Assembly (NCBI GenBank): GCA_964610465.1
Contig: CAZSWA010000008.1
Span: forward strand, 1-63,080
Source: an uncultured Gammaproteobacteria bacterium
Lineage (GTDB): Bacteria; Patescibacteriota; Microgenomatia; Levybacterales; UBA12049
Reading direction: 5' to 3'
DNA: 63,080 nt
A model generated the notes under the pieces. That model saw only the letters and a program-made list of their open reading frames with translations. It searched no databases and had not been told where the DNA came from. How positions within the stretch are numbered: position 1 is the first letter of the stretch; each line of letters starts with the position of its first letter. Made by a program: the position numbers and the translations under genes. Shown piece by piece: positions 111 through 62,233 of the stretch.

Positions 111-3100
111 GTCATTACCCAAAATGGCAATGTGGGGATAGGAACCACTACTCCGACCACTCTTTTAGATATAGAACAAACTCTCAACGGTACAATACAA
201 GAAAAAATTATCAATAATAGTACTGGAGCTCAAGCCAATGCGCAATTGCAAATCACAAACAGTGGAGGAAATGCATTATTCTTGACACAATTTTCTAATG
301 CAAATGGATCAACCTGGAGCGGTCTTAGCCAAGCAAATATGGCAAGAATCCGTAGTAATACTGGTAACGCGTACCTTGTTGTTACCACATCAAACACTGC
401 ACCTCTTGTTTTTGGTACCAATGATATAGAACGAGGAAGGTTTGATAGTTCAGGAAACCTTGGTATTGGGACTACTTCTCCCCTTGCTACATTAGATGTC
501 AGAACAACTTCAGGCACTACTCCTGCTGCTTCTGTCTCAGGTGCTACCTCTTTTGCAGGCCTGGTGGTTGACAATTCAGGGGTTGGTGATTTATTTACTG
601 CTTCTAAATCCGGTGCAACAAAGTTTGTAATTGGTAATGACGGTTCTATAAATCTCTACGGCGGAGCATCTGGATCTATAGGGATTAAAGCTCCATCAAG
701 TCCGACAAGTTACACTCTTACTCTTCCAAGCAGTAACAGTACAGGAACCCAGGCTCTTACGAATAATGGGAGTGGCGTATTATCCTGGACAAGTGTTGCA
801 ACAGGTACTAATCCATGGGATCTCGCTAACATGGCAATTATTCCCAAAGACAACCAGTATGATTTGCTGCTTGGTGCAACTGCAACAAGTTCTGCATTGT
901 TTTCTGTAACTCATATGGGTTCTGGTACACCCGTTGCATCAATTGCTGCCGGAACCAATAATCCAGCTCTTTCAATTGATGCCAATGGCAATATCCAAAC
1001 CTACAAAGCAACTACACTTACCCTTGGAGGAAGTAAGACTGGCAATATCTCATTTAATTCTGCTGGAACAACTGCAATGACAGTTGCTGGAGGCAATGTA
1101 GGGATAGGAACAACTAGTCCGTATGGAACAGTCAGTGGCTTTACCGGTGGTGGCTTACAAATTGGGAATGTGAATACTAACGCAACACCAAAAACCTTAT
1201 TCTTAAGTGATATGAGCAATGCTACCAATGCTGGTCCTCAGCTTCTGGGTAACTGGAGTGGCAATGGGGTCTGGGGACTTGGAGTGAGCAACAGTAGCAA
1301 TGCTACCTATACCCTTCGGCTTGGTGCTGCTGATACATCAGCTGGTACCTGGGCTACCAACCAAGATGGCTTTAAACTGCAAATTGGTGGTTCAGGTTCA
1401 AATGCCACAGCTCTTGGAACGCTTGACCTTCGGGCTGACTCTGGCACTCTCCCTGTTGCTTCTATCTCTGGGAAGACTTCTTTTGCAGGAATGGTAGTTG
1501 ACCAATCAGGTGTTGGTGATATTTTCACTGCTTCATCTTCTGGTCTTACAAGGTTTGTTATTGATATGAATGGCAATTTTGGTTTTGGTGGCAAACCAGC
1601 AACAAATCTTGACTTATCAGGCAATGGAACTATTCTTGCAACCGGTGCTGCACAGTTTAGCAGTTTTTCAGGAGGAGGACTGCAAGAATGTACCTCTGCA
1701 AATAAAAGACTTGTTTATCATGCTGGAACTAAATTATTTGATTGTGTAACAAATGCGAGCGCAATTAAATCATTCGTCAATACCAATACGGTAACCACGG
1801 TAAATAATGTGACAACTACCTACTGGACACAGGCCTTTGGTCCAAATGGAAGCGGTGCGAATAACCCTGCAACTCCATCTGCAGCACTTAACAACGTTGC
1901 AGATTCTATCCTCATTCAAGGTACTATTATTCTTAATGTTGCTGCAAACAACAAGTTTACCTCACTTTCAATATGGGCTAATACAAATGGTACCCAGCCT
2001 ACCTGTGGCACAACAACTACCTCTAATTTCAAGGTTGGAGGTGACCTCGGTTCCTTCGGAGCTGGTAGTCCGGCTACGATTACCTTCAGTTTAGTAAACG
2101 CTCCAGGTACAGCAAATGTCATGTACACAGTCTGTTCAACAGCATCAAATGATACAAGTGGCTCTATCAGCCGTATCGATATGCAGCTTCAAGAGGTATC
2201 TACCTCCGACTTGGCTGAGGTGTATCCAACCCTTAATACCAACCTGCAACCTGGAGATATCGTCACATCAGACGCGACAATGACCAGTGCTGTTATGAAA
2301 TCAACGAAAGAAAATGATTCAGCAGCCATGGGTGTTGTTTCAACCAAACCAGGACAGATCATTGGAGGAAATGATATCCCAAGTGGTATGAATGCAGCAT
2401 TAATTGCCCTTTCAGGTCGTGTTCCTGTAAAAGTTACCAGCCTTAATGGCACACCTCATGTTGGCGATCCAATTACGAGCAGTAACTTTCCAGGAGTTGG
2501 TATGGAACAAACTCAAGCTGGAAAGATAGTTGGCCGGGTGATTGAAGATGTAAATGATTGGAATGAGAATACCTGTAAAGTAGTCAATAGTCTTGATGAT
2601 ATAAATCTCCTTTGGCCACAGGATACAACTGGCGCCAATAGTGCTCATCCTTGTTTTGCTATCCCAACCAAAAATGTACAAGATGTTCCAGCAACTTATA
2701 CCAAACCATACATCTTTGTTGGTAAAGTCATGATAAAAGTTGAAAACAACTTTAATACTCCAGATGTAGTGCTCAACGTAAATGCAGATGGTCAATTACA
2801 GATTCGACCAGGAAGTGAAGTGACGCCAGATGACTTGGCAAATGCAGATAGATATTACCTCATGGATAAAGAGAATAATATTATCACCAATTCCGAAGCA
2901 TTCTCAGATGTCTTAGCAGCCAATGGTATCTTTGGCAAAATCACGGCAACTACAATAAACAGCAAAGCAGTACGTATTGGCAATGTAACTCTTAGTGCCA
3001 CTGATTCAGGAGCACTTAGCTTTACCAATAATGATGGTCTTAAAGTTGCCTCTCTTGATACTATAGGCAATCTTACGCTGAACGGAACGCTTACCACTAC

Positions 3101-4880
3101 TTCTGGAACCTTGGCAGTTGCACAGGATTATGCATCAACTGATACATCGCTTGAAGCAGGAGATGTGGTTACGATTGATACCAATGTAACAAGTTCTGTC
3201 ACTAAGACAGCCAATGCCTATGATACGAAAATGTTGGGTGTGTATGCTGATAACCCAGCCTTACGACTTTCAGAAAAAAACAATAGCAAATCAGTTCCAA
3301 TTGTCAGTACAGGAAAAGCATTAGTCAAAGTCTCAACTGAAAATGGTCTAATTCATAAAGGTGACTATCTTACCTCCTCCTCTACTGCAGGTGTTGCCAT
3401 GAAAGCTTCTCATGCAGGAGAAGTCTTAGGAAAAGCGCTTGAAGACTTCACTGCTTCAGCATCCGGCAAGATACAAGCCTTTATAAATGTTGGTTTTGCT
3501 GATCCTCAAAATATCTTAGCGAATATGGTACTTGGCAATGATGGCAAATTGGTTGTTGCAAATGTCAGTACTAAATCTATTGCACTTGATTCTTCACTTC
3601 AGGTTGGCGAGAAAGAAGTCAATGGAACACTGAATGATGCACTGCTTACAATGAACGATAGTATTACTTCTACTCAAAATAAAGTAAATGGTATTGAACA
3701 AGATGTACTCGCATTGGCTGCAAAGGCACAAACAATCGATATGAAAGTTGATACTCTTACTACAGAGGAAACATCAAACTCTGCTCAAATTGCCCAGACT
3801 TCTGAAAAAGTTGCTTCAACTGAAGCAAGAGTAGCCAATCTTGAGTCAAACGGAGCATCTATTTCTTCCCGAATCAGTCAAATAAATGATGTCGCAAAAC
3901 TTGCAATTGATAATGCCAATACCTTTAGCAGTAAAGTCGCATCAACTGCTGCCGATATCGCGAACTTAAGCAAACAACTTGGTGATTTCCTCTTCAATTT
4001 TAACAGTGCATCAGACTCTGCAACTGCTTTGCATCTGACTTCGCCTGATACGCTTATTGCATCTGAATCTGCATCTGGTGCCAATCTCAGTGCTACATCC
4101 AATGCCACTATTGCAGAAAACCTTACTGCCTATACCACTACAGTACAGGATACCTTCAAAGTACTTGGCACGTCCTATCTTAGCGATACAAGCATTGCAA
4201 GAAGTATAAAAGTTGGTGATACTTTCTCCATCTCACAAAATGCAATTAATGTAATAGGCACTCCTATAACTGATGGACAAACTCCAACTGATGGCATTCT
4301 CTACCTGCAGAATTCTCCACTTGCCAATCTTTTGGATATCTTCAGCGGCGCAGTTACGATTGACAGAAGCGGCACTATCCAGGCCAAAGGCGACATCAAC
4401 GTTTCAGGCAACGCGCAGATTAAAGGAGATATAAAACTTAGTGGAAATCTGCAACTTGATGGCGCAATCACTATCGCTGCAACTGCAGGAGCAGAACTTA
4501 AAGCAAGAGACGTTCTCTATATCTCAGCTCCTGGAATTGTCAAAAAAGCCGATGCAACCCAGATTGAAACATCAGTCGTAGTTGGTATTGCTGCCAATGA
4601 CGCACATGTAAATGATCAGGTCATTGTAATTATTGGAGGTAAAGCCAAAGGTTTTGAGAATCTCAAAGCTGGAAGTAGATATTATCTAGGAACAGATGGA
4701 AGTATTACTAGTATTATCCCGGCAAACTTCCTCAAAGCAGTTCCTATAGGAGTTGCTTTCTCTGATACTGAGTTAGTCATTGAACTTGCACCAGGTACGA
4801 TTGGTGATGCAAGCTACAACAGCAGTCCTCTTGATATTACTCCAACTCCAATAAGTGATACAAGCAGTACTACAAATTAG
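1..4880 (+). CDS. giant repeat-containing secreted/cell-surface protein, 5' end cut by window edge
   Basis: The frame of the 48..4880 ORF is already open from nt 3. Nt 3-47 read TPVASLSGKTSFASL, another copy of the internal repeat, so the true start lies upstream of the window. The protein is G/T/S/N-rich with three copies of the motif SG.TSFAG(L/M)VVD.SGVGD(L/I)FTAS.SG..(R/K)FVI. It has a long coiled-coil-like stretch (aa ~1180-1290) and no enzyme motif I recognise. Confidence 0.8.
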   Translation, partial: TPVASLSGKTSFASLVVDNSGVGDLFTASSSGLNRFVITQNGNVGIGTTTPTTLLDIEQTLNGTIQEKIINNSTGAQANAQLQITNSGGNALFLTQFSNANGSTWSGLSQANMARIRSNTGNAYLVVTTSNTAPLVFGTNDIERGRFDSSGNLGIGTTSPLATLDVRTTSGTTPAASVSGATSFAGLVVDNSGVGDLFTASKSGATKFVIGNDGSINLYGGASGSIGIKAPSSPTSYTLTLPSSNSTGTQALTNNGSGVLSWTSVATGTNPWDLANMAIIPKDNQYDLLLGATATSSALFSVTHMGSGTPVASIAAGTNNPALSIDANGNIQTYKATTLTLGGSKTGNISFNSAGTTAMTVAGGNVGIGTTSPYGTVSGFTGGGLQIGNVNTNATPKTLFLSDMSNATNAGPQLLGNWSGNGVWGLGVSNSSNATYTLRLGAADTSAGTWATNQDGFKLQIGGSGSNATALGTLDLRADSGTLPVASISGKTSFAGMVVDQSGVGDIFTASSSGLTRFVIDMNGNFGFGGKPATNLDLSGNGTILATGAAQFSSFSGGGLQECTSANKRLVYHAGTKLFDCVTNASAIKSFVNTNTVTTVNNVTTTYWTQAFGPNGSGANNPATPSAALNNVADSILIQGTIILNVAANNKFTSLSIWANTNGTQPTCGTTTTSNFKVGGDLGSFGAGSPATITFSLVNAPGTANVMYTVCSTASNDTSGSISRIDMQLQEVSTSDLAEVYPTLNTNLQPGDIVTSDATMTSAVMKSTKENDSAAMGVVSTKPGQIIGGNDIPSGMNAALIALSGRVPVKVTSLNGTPHVGDPITSSNFPGVGMEQTQAGKIVGRVIEDVNDWNENTCKVVNSLDDINLLWPQDTTGANSAHPCFAIPTKNVQDVPATYTKPYIFVGKVMIKVENNFNTPDVVLNVNADGQLQIRPGSEVTPDDLANADRYYLMDKENNIITNSEAFSDVLAANGIFGKITATTINSKAVRIGNVTLSATDSGALSFTNNDGLKVASLDTIGNLTLNGTLTTTSGTLAVAQDYASTDTSLEAGDVVTIDTNVTSSVTKTANAYDTKMLGVYADNPALRLSEKNNSKSVPIVSTGKALVKVSTENGLIHKGDYLTSSSTAGVAMKASHAGEVLGKALEDFTASASGKIQAFINVGFADPQNILANMVLGNDGKLVVANVSTKSIALDSSLQVGEKEVNGTLNDALLTMNDSITSTQNKVNGIEQDVLALAAKAQTIDMKVDTLTTEETSNSAQIAQTSEKVASTEARVANLESNGASISSRISQINDVAKLAIDNANTFSSKVASTAADIANLSKQLGDFLFNFNSASDSATALHLTSPDTLIASESASGANLSATSNATIAENLTAYTTTVQDTFKVLGTSYLSDTSIARSIKVGDTFSISQNAINVIGTPITDGQTPTDGILYLQNSPLANLLDIFSGAVTIDRSGTIQAKGDINVSGNAQIKGDIKLSGNLQLDGAITIAATAGAELKARDVLYISAPGIVKKADATQIETSVVVGIAANDAHVNDQVIVIIGGKAKGFENLKAGSRYYLGTDGSITSIIPANFLKAVPIGVAFSDTELVIELAPGTIGDASYNSSPLDITPTPISDTSSTTN
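495..650 (+). repeat. copy 2 of intragenic repeat (TLDVRTTSGTTPAASVSGATSFAGLVVDNSGVGDLFTASKSG)
   Basis: Imperfect direct repeat of 1..110 and 1410..1585. The core ggttgacaattcaggggttggtgat is identical to copy 1. Confidence 0.8.
1410..1585 (+). repeat. copy 3 of intragenic repeat (TLDLRADSGTLPVASISGKTSFAGMVVDQSGVGDIFTASSSG)
   Basis: Imperfect direct repeat of the two copies above. Confidence 0.8.
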
Positions 4881-9392: not shown

Positions 9393-9857
9393 ATGAATTC
9401 ATTTTCATTTTCCCAATTCCTGAATCGTTTCCCTGATGATACGACATGTCTTGAAGAAATAAAAAAAGTACGTTTTCCCGCAGGTATTCATTGCATCATT
9501 TGTAACAAAATCACAAAACATTACAAACTCAAAGGAAGAACTGCTTATTCATGTAAAATTTGTCGTAATCAAGTATATCCATTAAAAGACACGATTTTTG
9601 CAAAAACTTCTACTCCCCTTCGTGTCTGGTTTTATGCTCTTTTTCTTATGACCCATACCCGATCAGATATTTCAATAAAACAACTGCAGCGCGAATTAGG
9701 AGTAACTTACAAAACTGCATGGAGAATGTATGCAAACATTCATATGCTTATGGAACAAAATAATGGAGATTTACTTGTAAAACCCGGCTGGCAAGAACGG
9801 AAATGGATATTTTTTAATACTATTGAATTCAAAGTGGTACAACGATCAGGAAAATGA
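9393..9857 (+). CDS. IS1595-type transposase N-terminal zinc-ribbon/HTH domain protein (no DDE domain)
   Basis: The 154-aa ORF has CxxC...CxxC (CIICNKITKHYKLKGRTAYSCKICRN) followed by LRVWFYALFLMTHTRSDISIKQLQRELGVTYKTAWRM, typical of the N-terminus of IS1595-family transposases. The ORF ends before any catalytic domain. Confidence 0.65.
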   Translation: MNSFSFSQFLNRFPDDTTCLEEIKKVRFPAGIHCIICNKITKHYKLKGRTAYSCKICRNQVYPLKDTIFAKTSTPLRVWFYALFLMTHTRSDISIKQLQRELGVTYKTAWRMYANIHMLMEQNNGDLLVKPGWQERKWIFFNTIEFKVVQRSGK

Positions 9858-11863: not shown

Positions 11864-12276
11864 ACAAGGAGAGTATAAACTATTACGTTACGTAAATGTC
11901 AAGGAGATAAAATAACGAAGAGATGCACGATGCTACTCAAGTCGCTCGTATTTGTTGAGAAAAACCTGAATAATCTCAGTCAGTTCTCCTTCGTATATTA
12001 CGATACCTGTAACAAATCTGATTCAATGCCATAAATAAACATCTGAGGAAATAACCTGTGGTTTTTGTTTGTCTTTATGCCATAAGATAAGGGTTAGTTT
12101 CTCATCTGTAATGCTAAAGTTGGAAACTGAAATAATAAGATATTGGTAAAAGGTAGCATATATACCTCAAATTACAAAATCTTTTACAAATAAAGTCTAG
12201 ATTTATTCCTGTTCAAATGCTAAAATAGGCATGTGTTTATATTCCGCGATAGCTCAACGGTAGAGCAGGTCGCTGT

Positions 12277-12831
12277 AGCACTTTAAGATAATCTCAAATC
12301 GAGGTATACTTTAAGTATGCCCGAGAAGAGAACATATGCCCAGCGCCGAGAATATTTAATTCAAGCTGTTTCAAAAAGACGTAAACGTTTAAAAGAAATG
12401 GCTCTTAAATACAAAGGTGGTAAATGTATTTTGTGTGGATATAATCGTTGCTCTTCAGCATTGGATTTTCATCACATTCATGCAAAGAGTAAAGAGTTTG
12501 GTGTTTCTCTGGATGGATTAACTCGATCTTGGGAGCGCATCAAAAATGAATTGGACAAATGTATACTTGTTTGTGCTAATTGCCATAGAGAAATACATGC
12601 AGGCATATTGCAGCTCTCTGAAGTAATTCAGAGTAGAAAATGGGGTGAATTCAGGGAAGTCTTGGCAGTGCCGAAAGATAATCCTGAGCCAAGCTTAGCA
12701 AATGGTGTAAAGTAGCTAAGAAGGTGCAGAGACTATAGAGTGAGTAACCAAGCAATAAGCTCTAATCAGCGCCCCATCTCGCATTGCGAGAATGAGATAG
12801 TCCACGCTTTCTAGAAATAGAAAGATAAGTG
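12277..12831 (+). mobile_element. group I intron (IC3-like) in tRNA anticodon loop, carrying an HNH ORF
   Basis: The proposed 5' splice site follows a U and the 3' splice site follows a G. The segment AAGGTGCAGAGACTA (12721..12735) matches, from memory, the conserved J8/7-P7 segment of tRNA group I introns (Azoarcus tRNA-Ile, cyanobacterial tRNA-Leu). A 7-bp hairpin with a GAAA tetraloop (12807..12824) lies just before the 3' splice site. Confidence 0.65.
12317..12715 (+). CDS. HNH homing-endonuclease-like protein (intron-encoded)
   Basis: The 132-aa ORF contains KGGKCILCGYNRCSSALDFHHIH...LVCANCHREIH, an HNH/zinc-finger nuclease motif. It lies wholly inside the tRNA intron. The start codon is uncertain; internal Met28 is an alternative. 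Confidence 0.75.
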   Translation: MPEKRTYAQRREYLIQAVSKRRKRLKEMALKYKGGKCILCGYNRCSSALDFHHIHAKSKEFGVSLDGLTRSWERIKNELDKCILVCANCHREIHAGILQLSEVIQSRKWGEFREVLAVPKDNPEPSLANGVK

Positions 12832-12907
12832 TAACGACAAGGTTCTAGGTTCGAATCCTAGTCGCGGAGCCAAAGTTGTTTGAAATATTAAACTTCTAAA
12901 ATATGCT

Positions 12908-13767
12908 TCACTGTGAGGATATTTTTACAATCTGTGAAATATCCAATTTCCCATTCGTCAACAGAATCGTATCTTCAAATAATATATAGTTTTCCCCTTT
13001 TGTGTTGTATGCTTTTCTACCGGCTTCGAAAACGATCGCTACAGCAGCTGCAATATCCCAGGGTTTGGTTTTAAAATGAATAAAAACATCCTTTTCCCCT
13101 TCTGCTACCTGCATGGTTTCAATTACCTGGCTTCCGAGTGTTTCAGTCGACATATGAATTTCTTTTTTCAAACGATCAATTACTATATTTGTAAGCTCAA
13201 ATGCTTCTTTATCTTTGGAATATGTTGGACTGTAGATCAAAGCTGCGCCTTCTGATTTTTCAGTAGCTGAAACTTTTAGTTTATATCCGTTAACATAAGC
13301 TCCTTTGCCTTTTTCTGCATAATATATCTTGTGTGCTTGAGGCTGATAAATAATACCGGCATAAATCTGTCCGTCTTTTATAACACCCACAGACACGCCC
13401 CAGTTTGGGTTTCTTTTTGTTTCATCGTTTTCCAGATATCCTTTATAATAATTTCCTGTCCCGTCGATCGGGTCTATAACGGCAATTAAGTTATGTTCTT
13501 TATGACCAGATCATGAGTTTCTGAAGATTCCTCATCCAGGTAAGAAATTCCCGGAAATTCGGAAGATAAAGCCCTTTTTAGGATATCTGTTACTGCCTTG
13601 TCACCTTCTGTTAAAATATCTTCTTTTGAAGATTTAATTTCCGCATGAAGTCCTTTGGATCTTATGTCCAATGCCTTATCACCGGCATCTTTAATAATCT
13701 CCAATAAGTGACCATTGATAATTTCTCCTTTTAGATTATCTATAAGCGGAGGATTTTCATTGGACAT
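12908..13767 (-). pseudogene. inositol monophosphatase / CysQ-family gene split by a frameshift
   Basis: The 93-aa ORF (13486..13767) carries the family N-terminus ending in YLDEESSE. The downstream frame, open from 13510, reads HNLIAVIDPIDGTGNY (the DPIDGT metal-binding motif) and continues into the 162-aa ORF, which has WDIAAA. The two frames overlap in 13486..13510. Confidence 0.7.
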
Positions 13768-58120: not shown

Positions 58121-58163
58121 ATATACTTTAGTTTGGTATATTTTATAGTGAATGTCAAGTTAG

Positions 58164-58250
58164 CGGTGGGACCGGGATTCGAACCCGGGGTAACCTTACG
58201 GCTACACACGCTCTCCAAGCGTGCTCTTTAAACCACTCAGACATCCCACC
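58164..58250 (-). tRNA. tRNA-Ser(GGA), class II, CCA not encoded
   Basis: The reverse complement folds with acceptor GGTGGGA/TCCCACC and anticodon stem CACGC/GCGTG with loop TTGGAGA. It has a long variable arm, the T-arm CCGGG-TTCGAAT-CCCGG and discriminator G. Confidence 0.9.
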
Positions 58251-58264
58251 ATCGTTACTATTAT

Positions 58265-58693
58265 CTATTTGCCATTTGCTATTAGCTCTTTCGCTTCTTT
58301 CCACACGTCTTTATCTGATTTATAAGTGAGACGTTCTCCAACTTTATCAATTGGTAGCCACTCAACGTTTTCCATTTCCCAATCATGTTTGGTAATATTT
58401 CCTTCTACAAATTCCATCAAGTAGTAATACACAGTCTTTTTAATCTTCTCACTGTTGAGGACATACCAGTAAGTCACCGGCTTAAGCTCTTTTAGTATTT
58501 TGCCTGTGACTCCTGTTTCTTCCTTTACTTCACGCAATGCTGTTTCCTCTTTGCCTTCTCCCTTGATATGATCGCCAATAAGTCCTTTGGGAAAGACCCA
58601 GCCATGGTGTTGTGAGTGCTGAGAGACAAGGATAAAAGTTTTTTCTTCCTCTCTTTTAACTACCACTCCGCCTGCTGAAAATTCAAATTTCAT
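58265..58693 (-). CDS. NUDIX hydrolase
   Basis: The Nudix box is GEGKEETALREVKEETGVTG. The ORF is 142 aa. Confidence 0.85.
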   Translation of the reverse strand: MKFEFSAGGVVVKREEEKTFILVSQHSQHHGWVFPKGLIGDHIKGEGKEETALREVKEETGVTGKILKELKPVTYWYVLNSEKIKKTVYYYLMEFVEGNITKHDWEMENVEWLPIDKVGERLTYKSDKDVWKEAKELIANGK

Positions 58694-58832
58694 ATGTAAA
58701 TTTCTTATTAGTATTTTGTAAAGATAATATCAAGCAGTAAGGCCTGATTTTTCGTATTCTAACTGTGTAATTATATCGTATTTACTTGACAAATGCAGCT
58801 AATTGAACGAAGATAAATAAGAAAGGGGGTGG

Positions 58833-59114
58833 ATGGAATATCCCTGCAAAGGGACAAAGCATATGACAAGAGCAGATCAAGAAGGAAATCAAAGTAATCC
58901 ATCAGAAGCATCTCAAAATATCAAAAAAGAAGCGGAGAATGCTCAAAGAATCAGTGAAGAGAAAAAAGTTGATTCGGAACAAAGTGTAAGAGAGGTAAAA
59001 GAAATGCTTCTAAGAACTAGGCAAGCAGCTGAACAGACAAAGGAAAACGAGAAAAAAGCAGAAGATATGAAGAAACAAGCAGAGGCAGCAAAAGAAGGGA
59101 AAGGAGTAGCATAG
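58833..59114 (+). CDS. small charged coiled-coil protein (hypothetical)
   Basis: The 93-aa ORF is E/K/Q-rich. A strong Shine-Dalgarno (aaagggggtggATG) lies upstream. It is the first of three tightly coupled ORFs. Confidence 0.55.
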   Translation: MEYPCKGTKHMTRADQEGNQSNPSEASQNIKKEAENAQRISEEKKVDSEQSVREVKEMLLRTRQAAEQTKENEKKAEDMKKQAEAAKEGKGVA

Positions 59115-59115
59115 T

Positions 59116-59463
59116 ATGCAAAATATACTCAATATAGATTTACAAACATTGCTGGATGATGTCGAGGCAGAACTTTTATCACGTATCATTGTTGAGTCAG
59201 AACAAAAGCAGCTTACAAGAGATAAGGCAGCCCAATTGGCACGAGACTTTTTAGATCTTTTGCCACCTCAAGACAAAGTTGACTTGTTACACAAACTTGG
59301 ACAATTGGGCGAGAAGTATCCAGAATTTCGAAGAATGTACATTAAGTACGCTTCAGAATATGAAGAAGAATTACGGCAGAAGAAATTACAGCTTATGTCA
59401 GAGCATATCAAACAAGGAGAAATAGAAAAAGCATTGCAGGTTGCGAAAGGAGGAGGATTATAA
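59116..59463 (+). CDS. hypothetical helical protein
   Basis: The 115-aa ORF starts 1 nt after the upstream stop. Its own stop overlaps the next ATG (TAATG). Confidence 0.55.
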   Translation: MQNILNIDLQTLLDDVEAELLSRIIVESEQKQLTRDKAAQLARDFLDLLPPQDKVDLLHKLGQLGEKYPEFRRMYIKYASEYEEELRQKKLQLMSEHIKQGEIEKALQVAKGGGL

Positions 59464-60809
59464 TGGCAGATGAAGGTTCATTTGAAGGAGGGTTATCTAA
59501 TCCATCAGGACCAAAAGGGCCACAACAGCAAGGACCTGAAATTGGAGGAAATCCCTTAAAAGATTCAGGACCAAGACCTGAAAGACAAAACCCTTTAGGT
59601 GATATAACATCAGGAGGGACTCAACCAAATACGCCAGAACCTGCACCTATTGGAGAAGATGTAGCGCCAAAGATATCTCAAGGAGATCTTCAAGGAGCAT
59701 TAGAAGATATAGCAGATTATAACAACCCTCAAATCACCCAAAAAGATAAAGAGACTACTTCACAAGAAAAAGAAGAAACGAAAATTCCTGATAACGCACA
59801 TCAAGAAGTATCATCTAAAAATGGAACTCCTGAAAACGTAAATCAACAAGCTCGTGGAGAAGGTCCAACTTCACAAGATACGACTTCAACTACTAACTCT
59901 CCAGAAAAGCCTGATCCTGCTCCAGGAGAACCTTCTCCAACAGAAATGAAAGTAAATGAACTAAGGGCACGTATTTCACAATATCCTGAAGTTCAAGCTG
60001 CTCTTGATAATCTTATGCAAAATCTAACTCCTGAAGCGCTGAATGACTTTGTCCAAAAAGCCAATGCGAAAGGAATACCAATAGAAGAATATTTACATTC
60101 TATAACCGAGTCTTTTTCTCAAGAAAGACAAAATGATACTGACACAAACGGTAATGGGAAAAATCCTGATACTAATGCTCAAACAAATGCCGGAGAAGAA
60201 GGCGCTCCGCCAGCTCCAGTAGAACAATCTCAAGAACAAGGGCAGGCTCAGCAACAGGAACAGCCAGTACAAATTACTGATCCAGCAATCGAAGCAATTG
60301 CCAATAAATTTCCGGACAATAAAGATTTTCGAAAATTCTTGGCAAATCATCCTGAACTTTATGATAGGTTAAAAAAGAGTGAAGACTTTCAGAATGTACT
60401 TCAAGAGAGAAAGTTTTTAAGAGATGTCTATGATACCTTGAAGGATAATAAAGATGTTATGAAATTATGGGAGAAAGCAGTGAAAAACCCAACACCTGAT
60501 AATATTCGCGAACTACAAGTAAGCTCAGACAGTGCGAAGAAAGAGAAAGATGCAAAGGAAGAAGTAACAAGATTGAATCAAGAATTAGCACAAGCTTTAG
60601 AGGAACATTCTCGCAACCCAAGTGAAGAAACGGCCAAAAAGATTAAAGATCTTCGGGAGAAAATTGCAGAAGCACACAAGAACTTACAGGCAGAGAGGGA
60701 GAAATATAAAAATCCACCACCATGGATATTAGTGTTAGGGATTATTCTTATTGGCTTATATGTAGGAGCAACCTATGCAATTTCAAGTTCCTTGTCAAAG
60801 CAAAAGTAA
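59463..60809 (+). CDS. tail-anchored protein with long disordered P/Q/E/T-rich N-terminal half and coiled coil
   Basis: The 448-aa ORF has a single C-terminal TM helix (WILVLGIILIGLYVGATYAISS). Its N-terminus is low-complexity. Confidence 0.6.
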   Translation: MADEGSFEGGLSNPSGPKGPQQQGPEIGGNPLKDSGPRPERQNPLGDITSGGTQPNTPEPAPIGEDVAPKISQGDLQGALEDIADYNNPQITQKDKETTSQEKEETKIPDNAHQEVSSKNGTPENVNQQARGEGPTSQDTTSTTNSPEKPDPAPGEPSPTEMKVNELRARISQYPEVQAALDNLMQNLTPEALNDFVQKANAKGIPIEEYLHSITESFSQERQNDTDTNGNGKNPDTNAQTNAGEEGAPPAPVEQSQEQGQAQQQEQPVQITDPAIEAIANKFPDNKDFRKFLANHPELYDRLKKSEDFQNVLQERKFLRDVYDTLKDNKDVMKLWEKAVKNPTPDNIRELQVSSDSAKKEKDAKEEVTRLNQELAQALEEHSRNPSEETAKKIKDLREKIAEAHKNLQAEREKYKNPPPWILVLGIILIGLYVGATYAISSSLSKQK

Positions 60810-60821
60810 TTCAGCAGTTTG

Positions 60822-60893
60822 TGCCCTCGGTGGGAATCGAACCCACAATTGAGGTTCCGGAAACCCCTGTTTTATCCATTAGACTACGAGGAC
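60822..60893 (-). tRNA. tRNA-Arg(CCG), CCA not encoded
   Basis: The reverse complement is GTCCTCG-TA-GTCT-AATGGATA-AAAC-A-GGGGT-TTCCGGA-ACCTC-AATT-GTGGG-TTCGATT-CCCAC-CGAGGGC-A. Confidence 0.85.
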
Positions 60894-60963
60894 AAATTGC
60901 TACTTTCCCAAACCAAATGTAATCCCGCTTTGCAGGGAACGTTTTCAGCCGAGTTTGACTCGG

Positions 60964-61052
60964 CGGAGGGGGTGAGATTCGAACTCACGGTCCGGCAAAT
61001 GCCAAACAGCGGTTTTCGAAACCGCCGCACTAGTCCACTATGCGACCCCTCC
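60964..61052 (-). tRNA. tRNA-Ser(CGA), class II, CCA not encoded
   Basis: The reverse complement has acceptor GGAGGGG/CCCCTCC and anticodon arm GCGGT-TTCGAAA-ACCGC. It has a long variable arm and the T-arm GTGAG-TTCGAAT-CTCAC. Confidence 0.9.
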
Positions 61053-61079
61053 TAAATTGTTAAATCAATCCTTATCATT

Positions 61080-61109
61080 GGGTCGTCTTGCCAACGGCAC
61101 AGGCGACCC
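61080..61109. repeat. hairpin repeat unit 1 (GGGTCGTC - 14 nt - GGCGACCC)
   Basis: An 8-bp stem (one G-T pair) with a 14-nt loop lies between tRNA genes. It is followed by TCTCCTT. Confidence 0.6.
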
Positions 61110-61141
61110 TCTCCTTAGTTATTAAATTAACTTTCATAATA

Positions 61142-61171
61142 GGGCCGTCCTGCAGAATGCGTGGGCGACCC
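61142..61171. repeat. hairpin repeat unit 2 (GGGCCGTC - 14 nt - GGCGACCC)
   Basis: This unit has the same arm sequence, the same 14-nt loop length and a similar 3' flank (TCCCTGG). It lies 62 nt from unit 1. Confidence 0.6.
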
Positions 61172-61247
61172 TCCCTGGTTTTGTAAACAAAAAAACTAAG
61201 AACTGTGAAGCGTGAACAAAAAACAAGAATATTTTTATACTTCAATG

Positions 61248-61320
61248 TGTGCCCGGGAGGACTCGAACCTCTAACCGCTGGGACCGCAACCCAGTGTTCT
61301 ATCCATTGAACTACGGGCAC
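61248..61320 (-). tRNA. tRNA-Arg(GCG), CCA not encoded
   Basis: The reverse complement is GTGCCCG-TA-GTTC-AATGGATA-GAAC-A-CTGGG-TTGCGGT-CCCAG-CGGTT-AGAGG-TTCGAGT-CCTCC-CGGGCAC-A. The anticodon reads GCG. Confidence 0.85.
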
Positions 61321-61417
61321 ATATGCAAGGGCAAATAAGTATAAAACTTGTACCTGTATTGTAACCGATTACGTATTCTGAGGCAAATTATAGTGGCTAT
61401 TGGTTATCAGCTGATAG

Positions 61418-62083
61418 CTAATTTGTAGGTTTCTCAAGAGGGAAGTTATGTTCCAGCCAACCTCCGGCTTTTTCTACAAAGGTAGGTTTGACATATTCTC
61501 TATATGGCAAATAAGGGAGTAAGACTTCTTTTACTTGTTGTGGAGTTACTTCGCCAAGTGTTAAAAGAATTTCTCCTGGATAAAATGCTTTGGTACCAAT
61601 ATGAAGTGTTGTCTCTCCATGTTGTTTGGTAAAATAAAAATCGTAGAGTTCCTCCCAGATAAAATAATAATCCTGGATACGAATTCCTTCAGTACTAATT
61701 TTGTAGAAGTAAGGATGAGGAGGTACTAATTCTAATGCAAAAGTGACAAATACGAGTGCTATGACAAGAAGCATAAGGGAATACATAGAGAAGAGGAATA
61801 AAATAATCTCAACTGCAAGCATGATAAGAAGCATATTGGTAAAAAACTCCTTCGAGCGTTTTTTAAATGGTCTTCCAGGTGCATGCCAAGAAAGGAGCGT
61901 TTTAATATCATCTACTACTGGAGTATCAGCCTCTGCGGTATCTCCGGCAGGTAATTCTTTTGACTCCTTTGGGAGTTCAGGTTGAGGTTTGGGTAACTCA
62001 ACAGGTTCTAATGGGAGATTTTTTTCTTCCATACCTTCAATGTATCCTATATCTAAATCTAAGTCAAGAATTCCATGAAACAT
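61418..62083 (-). CDS. two-TM membrane protein with acidic P/E-rich N-terminus (conserved hypothetical)
   Basis: The 221-aa ORF has LSWHAPGRPFKKRSKEFF followed by two TM helices and a ~100-aa C-terminal domain. MEEKNLP at 62032 is an alternative start. Confidence 0.6.
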   Translation of the reverse strand: MFHGILDLDLDIGYIEGMEEKNLPLEPVELPKPQPELPKESKELPAGDTAEADTPVVDDIKTLLSWHAPGRPFKKRSKEFFTNMLLIMLAVEIILFLFSMYSLMLLVIALVFVTFALELVPPHPYFYKISTEGIRIQDYYFIWEELYDFYFTKQHGETTLHIGTKAFYPGEILLTLGEVTPQQVKEVLLPYLPYREYVKPTFVEKAGGWLEHNFPLEKPTN

Positions 62084-62142
62084 TCAGTTTACTTGTACAA
62101 TGTGAGGCTATTTGTTATACTTTGAATCTGGATCCTAATTTA

Positions 62143-62229
62143 GGAGAGGTGACCGAGTGGTTGATGGTAGCAGTCTTGAAAACTGCCGTGGGTGCAAGCT
62201 CACCGTGGGTTCGAATCCCACCCTCTCCG
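62143..62229 (+). tRNA. tRNA-Ser(UGA), class II, CCA not encoded
   Basis: The acceptor is GGAGAGG/CCTCTCC and the anticodon arm is GCAGT-CTTGAAA-ACTGC. It has a long variable arm, the T-arm GTGGG-TTCGAAT-CCCAC and discriminator G. Confidence 0.9.
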
Positions 62230-62233
62230 CATC

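Follow-up and report, generated by a model that had tools for sequence, protein, structure and literature searches.

Group I introns in bacterial tRNA genes have been described for tRNA-Leu(UAA), tRNA-fMet, tRNA-Ile(CAU) and also for tRNA-Arg(CCU). We know of only one bacterial tRNA intron that carries an endonuclease, the tRNA-fMet intron with I-Ssp6803I, which is said to go back to the original reports of Biniszkiewicz in 1994 and of Bonocora and Shub in 2001; I-Ssp6803I is a PD-(D/E)XK endonuclease and hence of a different family from the one described here. Its gene lies in the tRNA-fMet intron of Synechocystis PCC 6803, as passages of two papers record (PMC8450103, PMC3984707). In the 63,080-nucleotide (nt) stretch of DNA analysed here (the window, to which all coordinates without a locus name refer), a tRNA-Asn(GUU) gene is split by a 555-nt group I intron with an open reading frame (ORF) for a putative HNH endonuclease. 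Like the cyanobacterial tRNA-fMet intron, it is a group I intron of the anticodon loop with a presumed homing endonuclease gene and a sporadic distribution. We put a probability of about 0.85 on the reading that this is a mobile group I intron with an HNH ORF in a tRNA-Asn(GUU) gene of the Candidate Phyla Radiation (CPR), spliced from its transcript and spreading by homing. The host is most likely a Microgenomates-type CPR bacterium, as the RpoD encoded in the window is 87–92% identical to proteins named Patescibacteria or Candidatus Levybacteria.

The split tRNA-Asn gene and its ribozyme

The original prediction, made from the letters of the sequence, had proposed two tRNA halves 555 nt apart with an acceptor stem TCCGCGA/TCGCGGA, a D-arm, a T-arm and an encoded CCA, probably forming a tRNA-Asn interrupted by a group I intron, and all of these elements are present where it had placed them (Table 1). 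ARAGORN with introns allowed returns tRNA-Asn(gtt) at 12243–12872 with a 555-nt intron, in agreement with our reading of the sequence, and the Rfam model RF00028 calls the intron. The insertion point lies between anticodon positions 35 and 36 (U35/U36), so that the 5′ junction follows U12276 and the 3′ junction follows G12831. Joining the exons gives the anticodon loop CUGUUAA, as had been proposed, in a tRNA with discriminator base G12869 and CCA encoded at 12870–12872. In its default mode ARAGORN listed five tRNAs in the window and did not find the split tRNA-Asn, and the Rfam tRNA model gave no match to it at 12243–12872. The intron mode found no further intron-bearing tRNA in the window, within which the split gene is the only tRNA-Asn.

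The ribozyme matches RF00028 (Intron_gpI) at 12596–12824 over the full model length with 86.2 bits (E 1.4e-20; gathering score 50), therefore far beyond chance resemblance, and Rfam showed no other group I match in the rest of the window. Its anatomy, derived from the Rfam alignment combined with a 39-sequence family alignment, is given in Table 1. At the 5′ splice site U12276 forms a wobble pair with G12610, as is characteristic of P1 in group I introns. The hairpin of 7 bp with a GAAA loop that had been noticed just upstream of the 3′ junction is P9. The motif AAGGTGCAGAGACTA at 12721–12735 is also present, but it had been labelled J8/7–P7, and the Rfam alignment assigns it to J6/7 and the 5′ strand of P7. 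It can be likened to AAGGUG(U/C)AGAGACUA, which we take to be the J6/7–P7 sequence of the Azoarcus intron, a resemblance that does not establish kinship. In the region of J8/7 and the 3′ strand of P7, GATAGTCC is nearly invariant across the family. RNAalifold pairs the guide sequence with UG/U at the 3′ junction, however this pairing is invariant and hence uninformative.

The boundaries of the intron were established from alleles that lack it. A metagenome scan with 41 nt spanning the joined exons as query detected 34 contigs with an uninterrupted tRNA-Asn identical over those 41 nt, and ARAGORN calls tRNA-Asn(gtt), with the loop CTGTTAA, in 33 of them. Contigs that blastn aligned on both exon sides join 12276 directly to 12832 (e.g. 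L130, L131, L134, L142 and L155), which fixes the boundaries independently of any model. Many of these empty-site contigs possess the window's neighbour genes at 65–78% nucleotide identity, including the rpoD/dnaG neighbours (L127, L131, L134–L136, L155, L158 and L159) and genes upstream (L128, L140 and L152), hence the split gene occupies the locus where relatives keep an uninterrupted tRNA-Asn. Neither the HNH gene nor the ribozyme was found in any of the 34 uninterrupted contigs. Presence and absence at an orthologous locus among relatives is as expected for a mobile intron, and the 34 empty alleles, several of them syntenic, give the sporadic presence with empty targets in relatives that is typical of homing genes.

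A genomic scan of one genome per species yielded 43 loci encoding relatives of the ORF, of which 36 have the ORF, or what is left of it, in a split tRNA at the same site. Nearly all are from metagenome-assembled genomes (MAGs) of CPR/Patescibacteria, spanning Saccharibacteria, Peregrinibacteria/Peribacteria, Kazan, Andersen-, Uhr-, Lipton-, Nealson-, Buchanan- and Moranbacteria and Paceibacterota; four are nominally Gammaproteobacteria or Pseudomonadales, under labels that come from an automated assembly set. Across 40 related genes, all 5′ exons end in CTGT and all 3′ exons start with TAA after a G (ATG, GTG, TTG or ACG). These exon ends bear on the identity of the tRNA, since a junction two bases upstream (CT/GT ... 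AAG/TG) would produce a tRNA-Thr(UGU). ARAGORN labels about half of the related loci Thr(tgt), and in the window both junctions follow U and end in G. In the many loci with introns ending ATG, TTG or ACG, however, the Thr junction would not end in G, while P1 places the U–G wobble at U12276 and the uninterrupted alleles read CTGTTAA. Furthermore, U1–A72 and G73 occur in all of the related genes, as they do in E. coli tRNA-Asn. The Asn junction alone is valid in all 40 genes, hence the identity as tRNA-Asn(GUU) given in the original prediction stands and the Thr junction is left with a negligible probability. The Thr(UGU), Tyr and Ile labels that ARAGORN gave to some related loci were rejected on the exon ends as junction ambiguities.

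Both parts of the composite show conservation of structure. In P1, covariation is seen in the pair that intron position +1 makes with the base preceding the guide sequence, which is G–C in most loci, A–U in the window, L001, L006 and L007, C–G in L011 and U–G in L018. Covariation in the ribozyme was assessed over 50 pairs of the 39-sequence alignment, with shuffled alignments and partners slid by 1–3 columns as controls. Paired cells made up 90.4% of all cells, as against 71.3% in shuffles and 33–45% with slid partners, and the covariation score was 0.53, as against 0.18 in shuffles and at most 0.14 with slid partners. Double changes were detected in 38 of the 50 pairs. P3, P4, P5, P6 and P8 covary, with compensatory changes in 7 of the 10 pairs of P4 and P5, and P7 is invariant. 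The 40 spliced tRNAs, which comprise 34 distinct sequences, have no unpaired cell in their 20 stem pairs, most of which show compensatory changes.

This structural selection on tRNA stems and ribozyme alike argues strongly against a dead gene, that is, a tRNA-Asn pseudogene disrupted by a mobile element and left unspliced, with tRNA-Asn supplied by another gene. Such a gene would not be expected to keep 20 of 20 stem pairs through compensatory changes in 34 distinct intron-bearing genes, nor a ribozyme core under equally strong selection, at a locus syntenic with the uninterrupted tRNA-Asn of relatives. Complete CPR genomes, moreover, are reported to have tRNAs for all amino acids only when the intron-containing ones are counted (PMC8172020). 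We therefore regard a pseudogene as highly improbable, even if the window covers 63 kb and a second, uninterrupted tRNA-Asn could lie elsewhere in the genome, and even if the case for splicing is built from sequence comparison.

For the spliced intron that we favour, guanosine-dependent self-splicing is predicted. The split gene would be transcribed as a pre-tRNA, in which the exon end GCUGU would pair with the guide GCAGC 333 nt downstream to form P1, with the U–G wobble at the splice site. Once the core P2–P9 had folded, an external guanosine would attack after U12276 and the freed 5′ exon would attack after G12831, giving a normal 73-nt tRNA with its encoded CCA.

The HNH reading frame in the P1 loop

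The ORF of 132 amino acids (aa) that had been read as an HNH protein is present (Table 1) and sits in the 333-nt loop of P1, so that the guide sequence falls within the 3′ end of the ORF and only 40 intron nt remain before the ATG. This short leader had been remarked on as an oddity, with two explanations offered. An overlap of ribozyme and coding sequence does exist, covering the guide sequence, P2 and, in the window, P3–P6. A start at the internal Met (12398) does not hold, however, as the N-terminus MPEKRTYA.R.EYL is conserved from its first residue (R5, Y7, R10 and Y13 are invariant), which makes the ATG at 12317 the real start.

The overlap is regular across the family. In the window and 33 related loci the guide sequence begins exactly 293 nt after the ATG, and the conserved C-terminus ...CHREIHAG stops about a dozen bases short of it. 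The codons that follow (Q-L-S/P...) amount to a translation of the guide sequence and P2. In most relatives a stop comes 22–40 nt past the guide sequence, in P2 or J2/3, giving proteins of 104–110 aa; the window ORF has lost this stop and continues through P3–P6 to a TAG in P6a. The resulting tail is predicted to be unstructured (pLDDT, the AlphaFold2 confidence score, <50), and its partial conservation in the closest relatives mirrors the conserved ribozyme sequence.

The sequence evidence that the protein is an HNH nuclease is moderate. Little or no variation occurs within the family in the CxxC, HH and CxxCH.EIH motifs, and the full-length window ORF retains all 23 family-invariant residues, including those of the CxxC/CxxCH and HH motifs. 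Pfam HNH (PF01844) matches 27 of 45 family members at E<0.01, and in PDB the best sequence matches are to McrA and to a group II intron maturase, in its DNA-binding/En (HNH) region (6me0; E 0.0055–0.015). In the AlphaFold2 model (overall pLDDT 80.5, core >90, residues 1–105 confident), a small beta-beta-alpha unit comes after a long, basic helix at the N-terminus. Its top fold matches are all HNH nucleases, namely CBASS Cap5, Cas9 HNH domains and the Gme HNH nickase (Foldseek probability up to 0.94).

The most likely function of such an enzyme is homing. With its basic N-terminal helix and CxxC...HH...CxxCH core, it would cut or nick uninterrupted tRNA-Asn genes near the anticodon, and repair would then copy the intron in. 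The intron ORF is broken or deleted in four loci, reduced to 71 aa in L005 and 20 aa in L026, lacking its start in L040 and with an internal deletion of about 170 nt in L043. Of these, L043 keeps the ribozyme (Rfam 78.8 bits), the family alignment accommodates L005 and L040, and Rfam matched nothing in L026. Damaged ORFs of this kind fit the usual decay phase of homing endonuclease genes.

Expression of the ORF may be separate from that of the tRNA. A TAYAHT hexamer resembling a −10 box, usually TGGTATACT, was observed upstream of the ATG in 37 of 40 CPR loci, in all 37 within 10 nt and in 35 at 5–10 nt, and 26 loci show a TGn extension; a motif resembling a Shine-Dalgarno sequence occurs in only one of the 40. 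In the window the extended −10 reads GGTATACT at 12303–12310. The motif is kept in the free-standing CPR copies L008, L011 and L018 described below and is not found in phage relatives. The ORF thus probably has its own extended −10 promoter giving a leaderless mRNA. Such a transcript would be without the 5′ exon and therefore could not splice, while the pre-tRNA, having no ribosome-binding site before the ATG, would be free to fold. Translation, which passes through the guide sequence, P2 and here P3–P6, and splicing would accordingly take place on different transcripts.

Several points weigh against our reading as a whole. Besides the possible second tRNA-Asn gene beyond the window, the P10 pairing, sought by eye, is weak, and the ORF runs through P3–P6, hence translation of the full-length precursor would disturb folding. 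Splicing and exon ligation are deduced from comparison among sequences, and the promoter and leaderless mRNA from a conserved motif. With regard to the protein, the window ORF scores 19.9 bits with PF01844, under the gathering score of 21.4, the Foldseek E-values are weak (≥0.056), and an invariant Lys takes the position of the canonical Asn of the HNH motif throughout the family.

The Lys and the Pfam score, together with the ORFs truncated or deleted in the four loci above and a basic N-terminal helix that might bind RNA, would suit an intron that splices but has an ORF that is not, or is no longer, a homing endonuclease, being either a decaying remnant or a maturase-like splicing helper. 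We think this unlikely. The window ORF is full-length with 23 of 23 family-invariant residues, presence and absence at an identical target fits active or recent mobility, and the free-standing phage relatives beside tRNA-Asn genes (see below) cannot be maturases.

Phage relatives, free-standing copies and neighbouring genes

Relatives of the HNH protein number at least 560 in IMG/VR, with 443 GenBank phage records, and are associated with tRNA-Asn. Among the 80 best viral loci, from which tRNA context was taken, 73 lie inside tRNA arrays, and tRNA-Asn(GTT) occurs within 1.5 kb in 57 and within 200 nt in 47. It is the nearest tRNA in 40 of the 80, far above chance for some 20 tRNA species. In the viral contigs L047–L124 the HNH relatives are free-standing and preferentially adjoin an uninterrupted tRNA-Asn(GTT). 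Bacillus phage Bastille (NC_018856 5857–6685, L126) has the HNH gene flanked by two tRNA-Asn genes, and a crAss-like Bacteroides phage has it within its tRNA array. This linkage suggests that the family recognises the sequence of the tRNA-Asn gene.

An arrangement with the gene outside the intron was also detected in four CPR MAGs (L008, L011, L018 and L037), where a free-standing HNH gene lies beside a tRNA-Asn with an ORF-less intron of 192–234 nt (Rfam 56–96 bits). The HNH gene is upstream of the tRNA-Asn in three of the four and convergent downstream in L037. In a neighbour-joining protein tree, which is midpoint-rooted, has no support values and serves as a hint only, the intron-borne proteins make up a single clade nested within those of phages. 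This clade also contains the free-standing CPR copies, hence they may be secondary exits from the intron and not its ancestors.

Phage-linked, free-standing-beside-intron and intron-resident HNH genes form a natural series for the union of endonuclease and ribozyme. A joint reading of these data would have a nuclease specific to tRNA-Asn genes that started out in phage tRNA arrays as a selfish, free-standing gene, one branch of which entered the P1 loop of a CPR intron, with three stages still visible (the endonuclease beside its target, beside an ORF-less intron and inside the intron), and with the intron also shielding the host, whose essential tRNA-Asn gene the phage copies of the nuclease could then no longer cut. 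Taken with all of its parts, we offer this tentatively, as an unlikely scenario.

Protection might also be the chief reason for which the intron is kept, its split anticodon region being immune to those HNH nucleases of the family that phages encode. Phage genomes contain many free-standing members beside tRNA-Asn genes, and insertion of the intron necessarily destroys a target spanning the anticodon loop. However, the notion that phage enzymes cut host genes, and not the genomes of rival phages, is unsupported, no CPR phage was identified among the viral HNH matches, and intron-less relatives persist. Ordinary homing, as we favour, accounts for the data without a protection step, and we consider protection as the main role to be quite improbable.

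Inserts in phage tRNA genes were observed at several viral loci. In a phage tRNA array, the tRNA-Asn(gtt) of L052 (1999–2267) carries 194 nt inserted at 35/36, with an HNH gene 256 nt upstream, and the insert shows by eye GCAGC, GUAGAGACU and a GAAA hairpin. We do not claim it as an intron, as it had no Rfam match even at E 0.01 and no match to the family nhmmer profile. According to a review of 2014, every phage intron then known lay in a protein gene, although phage tRNA genes are many (PMC3984707); if real, the L052 insert would place a group I intron in a tRNA gene of a phage, a case unseen at that time. L102 1224–1809 and L092 110–695 contain a phage tRNA-like gene (ARAGORN Ile(tat)) with a 512-nt insert. 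Inside the insert are an HNH gene of the same family and, nested, a sequence resembling a tRNA (weak Rfam tRNA match, 29.1 bits); no group I match was found. In the large phage contigs L073, L075 and L078, the intron mode of ARAGORN places at 1176–1391 a tRNA-Ser(gct) interrupted by 141 nt, and the HNH gene follows 110 nt downstream of it. This call may be spurious; L073, the only one of the three scanned, had no Rfam group I match.

Elsewhere in the window, five uninterrupted tRNA genes are clustered at 58163–62230 (Ser-GGA, Arg-CCG, Ser-CGA, Arg-GCG and Ser-UGA). On the minus strand at 12908–13767, a gene of the inositol monophosphatase family is present as two ORFs in different frames about 90 nt apart, matching Pfam profile positions 108–256 and 11–75, and reflects either a pseudogene with a frameshift or a fault of the assembly. 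On the plus strand at 9393–9857, an ORF of 154 aa contains only the zinc-ribbon domain of IS1595-type transposases. Its position is conserved in L127, L128 and L152 at about 67% nucleotide identity, hence it is probably domesticated or regulatory and not an active transposase.

Table 1 Features of the split tRNA-Asn gene and its intron in the window, with free-standing copies at other loci (positions within the named locus)
Feature	Position	Strand	Details and evidence
tRNA-Asn 5′ exon	12243–12276	+	acceptor TCCGCGA, D arm, anticodon-stem GGTCG, C32 U33 G34 U35; ARAGORN intron mode, empty-site alignments
P1 5′ strand (exon GCUGU + intron AG)	12272–12278	+	pairs with 12608–12614; 5′ splice site after U12276
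Group I intron, 555 nt	12277–12831	+	RF00028; boundaries from empty-site alleles; same intron in 36 of 43 related loci
Promoter-like site	12283–12310	+	TTAAGA, 16-nt spacer, TATACT (−10 box 12305–12310) 6 nt before ATG; consensus scan
HNH endonuclease ORF, 132 aa	12317–12715	+	conserved core about residues 1–97; residues ~98–132 encoded by ribozyme sequence
Internal guide sequence / P1 3′ strand, UUGCAGC	12608–12614	+	GCAGC (12610–12614) invariant in family
P2 hairpin, 7 bp, GUAA loop	12616–12622 / 12627–12633	+	7 of 7 pairs with compensatory changes
P3	12641–12647 (UGGGGUG) / 12770–12776 (CGCCCCA)	+	96.6% of cells paired; 4 pairs with double changes
P4	12652–12656 / 12682–12686	+	family alignment
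P5, P5a	P5 12659–12663 / 12675–12679; P4–P5a span 12652–12686	+	family alignment
P6	12689–12690 / 12723–12724	+	all pairs with double changes
P6a	12694–12699 / 12715–12720	+	all pairs with double changes; contains ORF stop TAG 12713–12715
J6/7 + P7 5′ strand	12725–12735 (P7 GACUA 12731–12735)	+	Rfam alignment; P7 invariant in 39 sequences
Extra hairpin between P7 and P3′ (UAGAG...CUCUA), P7.1-like	12736–12767	+	32-nt insertion relative to Rfam model
P8 hairpin	12777–12791	+	6 of 6 pairs with double changes
J8/7 + P7 3′ strand, AUGAGAUAGUCC	12792–12803	+	Rfam alignment
P9 hairpin, 7 bp, GAAA loop	12807–12824	+	sequence reading and family alignment
Terminal G (omega-G)	12831	+	G before TAA in 40 of 40 related genes
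tRNA-Asn 3′ exon	12832–12872	+	U36 A37 A38, stem CGACA, variable loop, T arm, acceptor TCGCGGA, G12869, CCA 12870–12872
Free-standing HNH gene + ORF-less intron	L008 3001–3631; L011 3001–3641; L018 ~3001–3647; L037 3001–3951		

Intron subgroup and comparison with known systems

Extra hairpins between P7 and P3′ are an IA-like topology in the scheme of Michel and Westhof. Most relatives of the window intron have two hairpins at this position, the window has one and seven have none. The location in the anticodon loop of a tRNA gene (the 35/36 insertion) is that of IC3 introns, which have no extra helices between P7 and P3′, and we have not filed the intron under IC3 since these hairpins are an IA-type trait. 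The ORF-less IC3 introns of cyanobacterial and plastid tRNA-Leu(UAA), Azoarcus tRNA-Ile(CAU) and Agrobacterium tRNA-Arg(CCU) have the anticodon-loop site in common with the tRNA-Asn intron, and also a compact core of about 200 nt and GNRA-capped P2 and P9, but they differ in the P7–P3′ region, where the tRNA-Asn family mostly has its two hairpins. When the ribozyme was compared with phage records by blastn, one weak match was detected, inside a phage DNA polymerase gene.

The pairing of a group I intron with an HNH enzyme is known from the phage introns of I-HmuI, I-BasI (phage Bastille, PMC162337) and I-PfoP3I (PMC3428280), whose IA-like periphery is also seen in the tRNA-Asn intron. However, these sit in protein-coding genes, DNA polymerase and others, and not in tRNA genes. 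Like the phage relatives of the tRNA-Asn HNH family, T4 SegB is free-standing in a phage tRNA cluster (PMC2330249), but SegB is a GIY-YIG enzyme, whereas the family described here is HNH, is linked specifically to tRNA-Asn and has one intron-borne branch. The layout of L008, L011, L018 and L037 is that of collaborative homing, as in F-CphI with the cyanophage psbA intron (PMC6083498) and mobE with I-TevIII in T4 (PMC2790892). A free-standing endonuclease beside an ORF-less intron has been proposed as a step towards composite mobile introns (PMC6083498, PMC2790892); it is not the state of the window intron.

In CPR bacteria, self-splicing introns with LAGLIDADG genes have been described in rRNA (PMC11270868). 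They share with the tRNA-Asn intron the host clade, an insertion in structural RNA genes and the capacity to confuse annotation, but differ in their rRNA hosts and their LAGLIDADG enzymes, and that paper mentions neither tRNA nor HNH. In the searchable literature we found neither a group I intron in tRNA-Asn nor a tRNA intron bearing an HNH gene described, and the sole relevant text was a remark made in passing on group I introns in CPR tRNAs (PMC8172020). The intron is widespread across CPR/Patescibacteria, and its gene in the window is missed by default ARAGORN and by the Rfam tRNA model, which may explain cases of "missing tRNA-Asn" in annotations and completeness checks of CPR genomes. Should the split gene be the only one for tRNA-Asn, a ribozyme would be needed for translation in these reduced genomes. 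The main interest of the intron lies in this breadth across CPR, in its effect on tRNA annotation and in the series linking phage to intron-resident endonucleases.

A mobile, endonuclease-bearing group I intron in a bacterial tRNA gene is already known, the cyanobacterial tRNA-fMet intron, and the tRNA-Asn intron is of the same kind. I-Ssp6803I acts on the uninterrupted tRNA gene at its anticodon region, and a like target is proposed for the tRNA-Asn HNH enzyme. The two introns differ in their hosts, CPR bacteria and not cyanobacteria, and in the tRNA-Asn intron the ORF overlaps the guide sequence and P2. New in the tRNA-Asn(GUU) intron are the host tRNA, the insertion point at 35/36, the HNH endonuclease and an ORF that fills the P1 loop and is partly encoded by the ribozyme itself.

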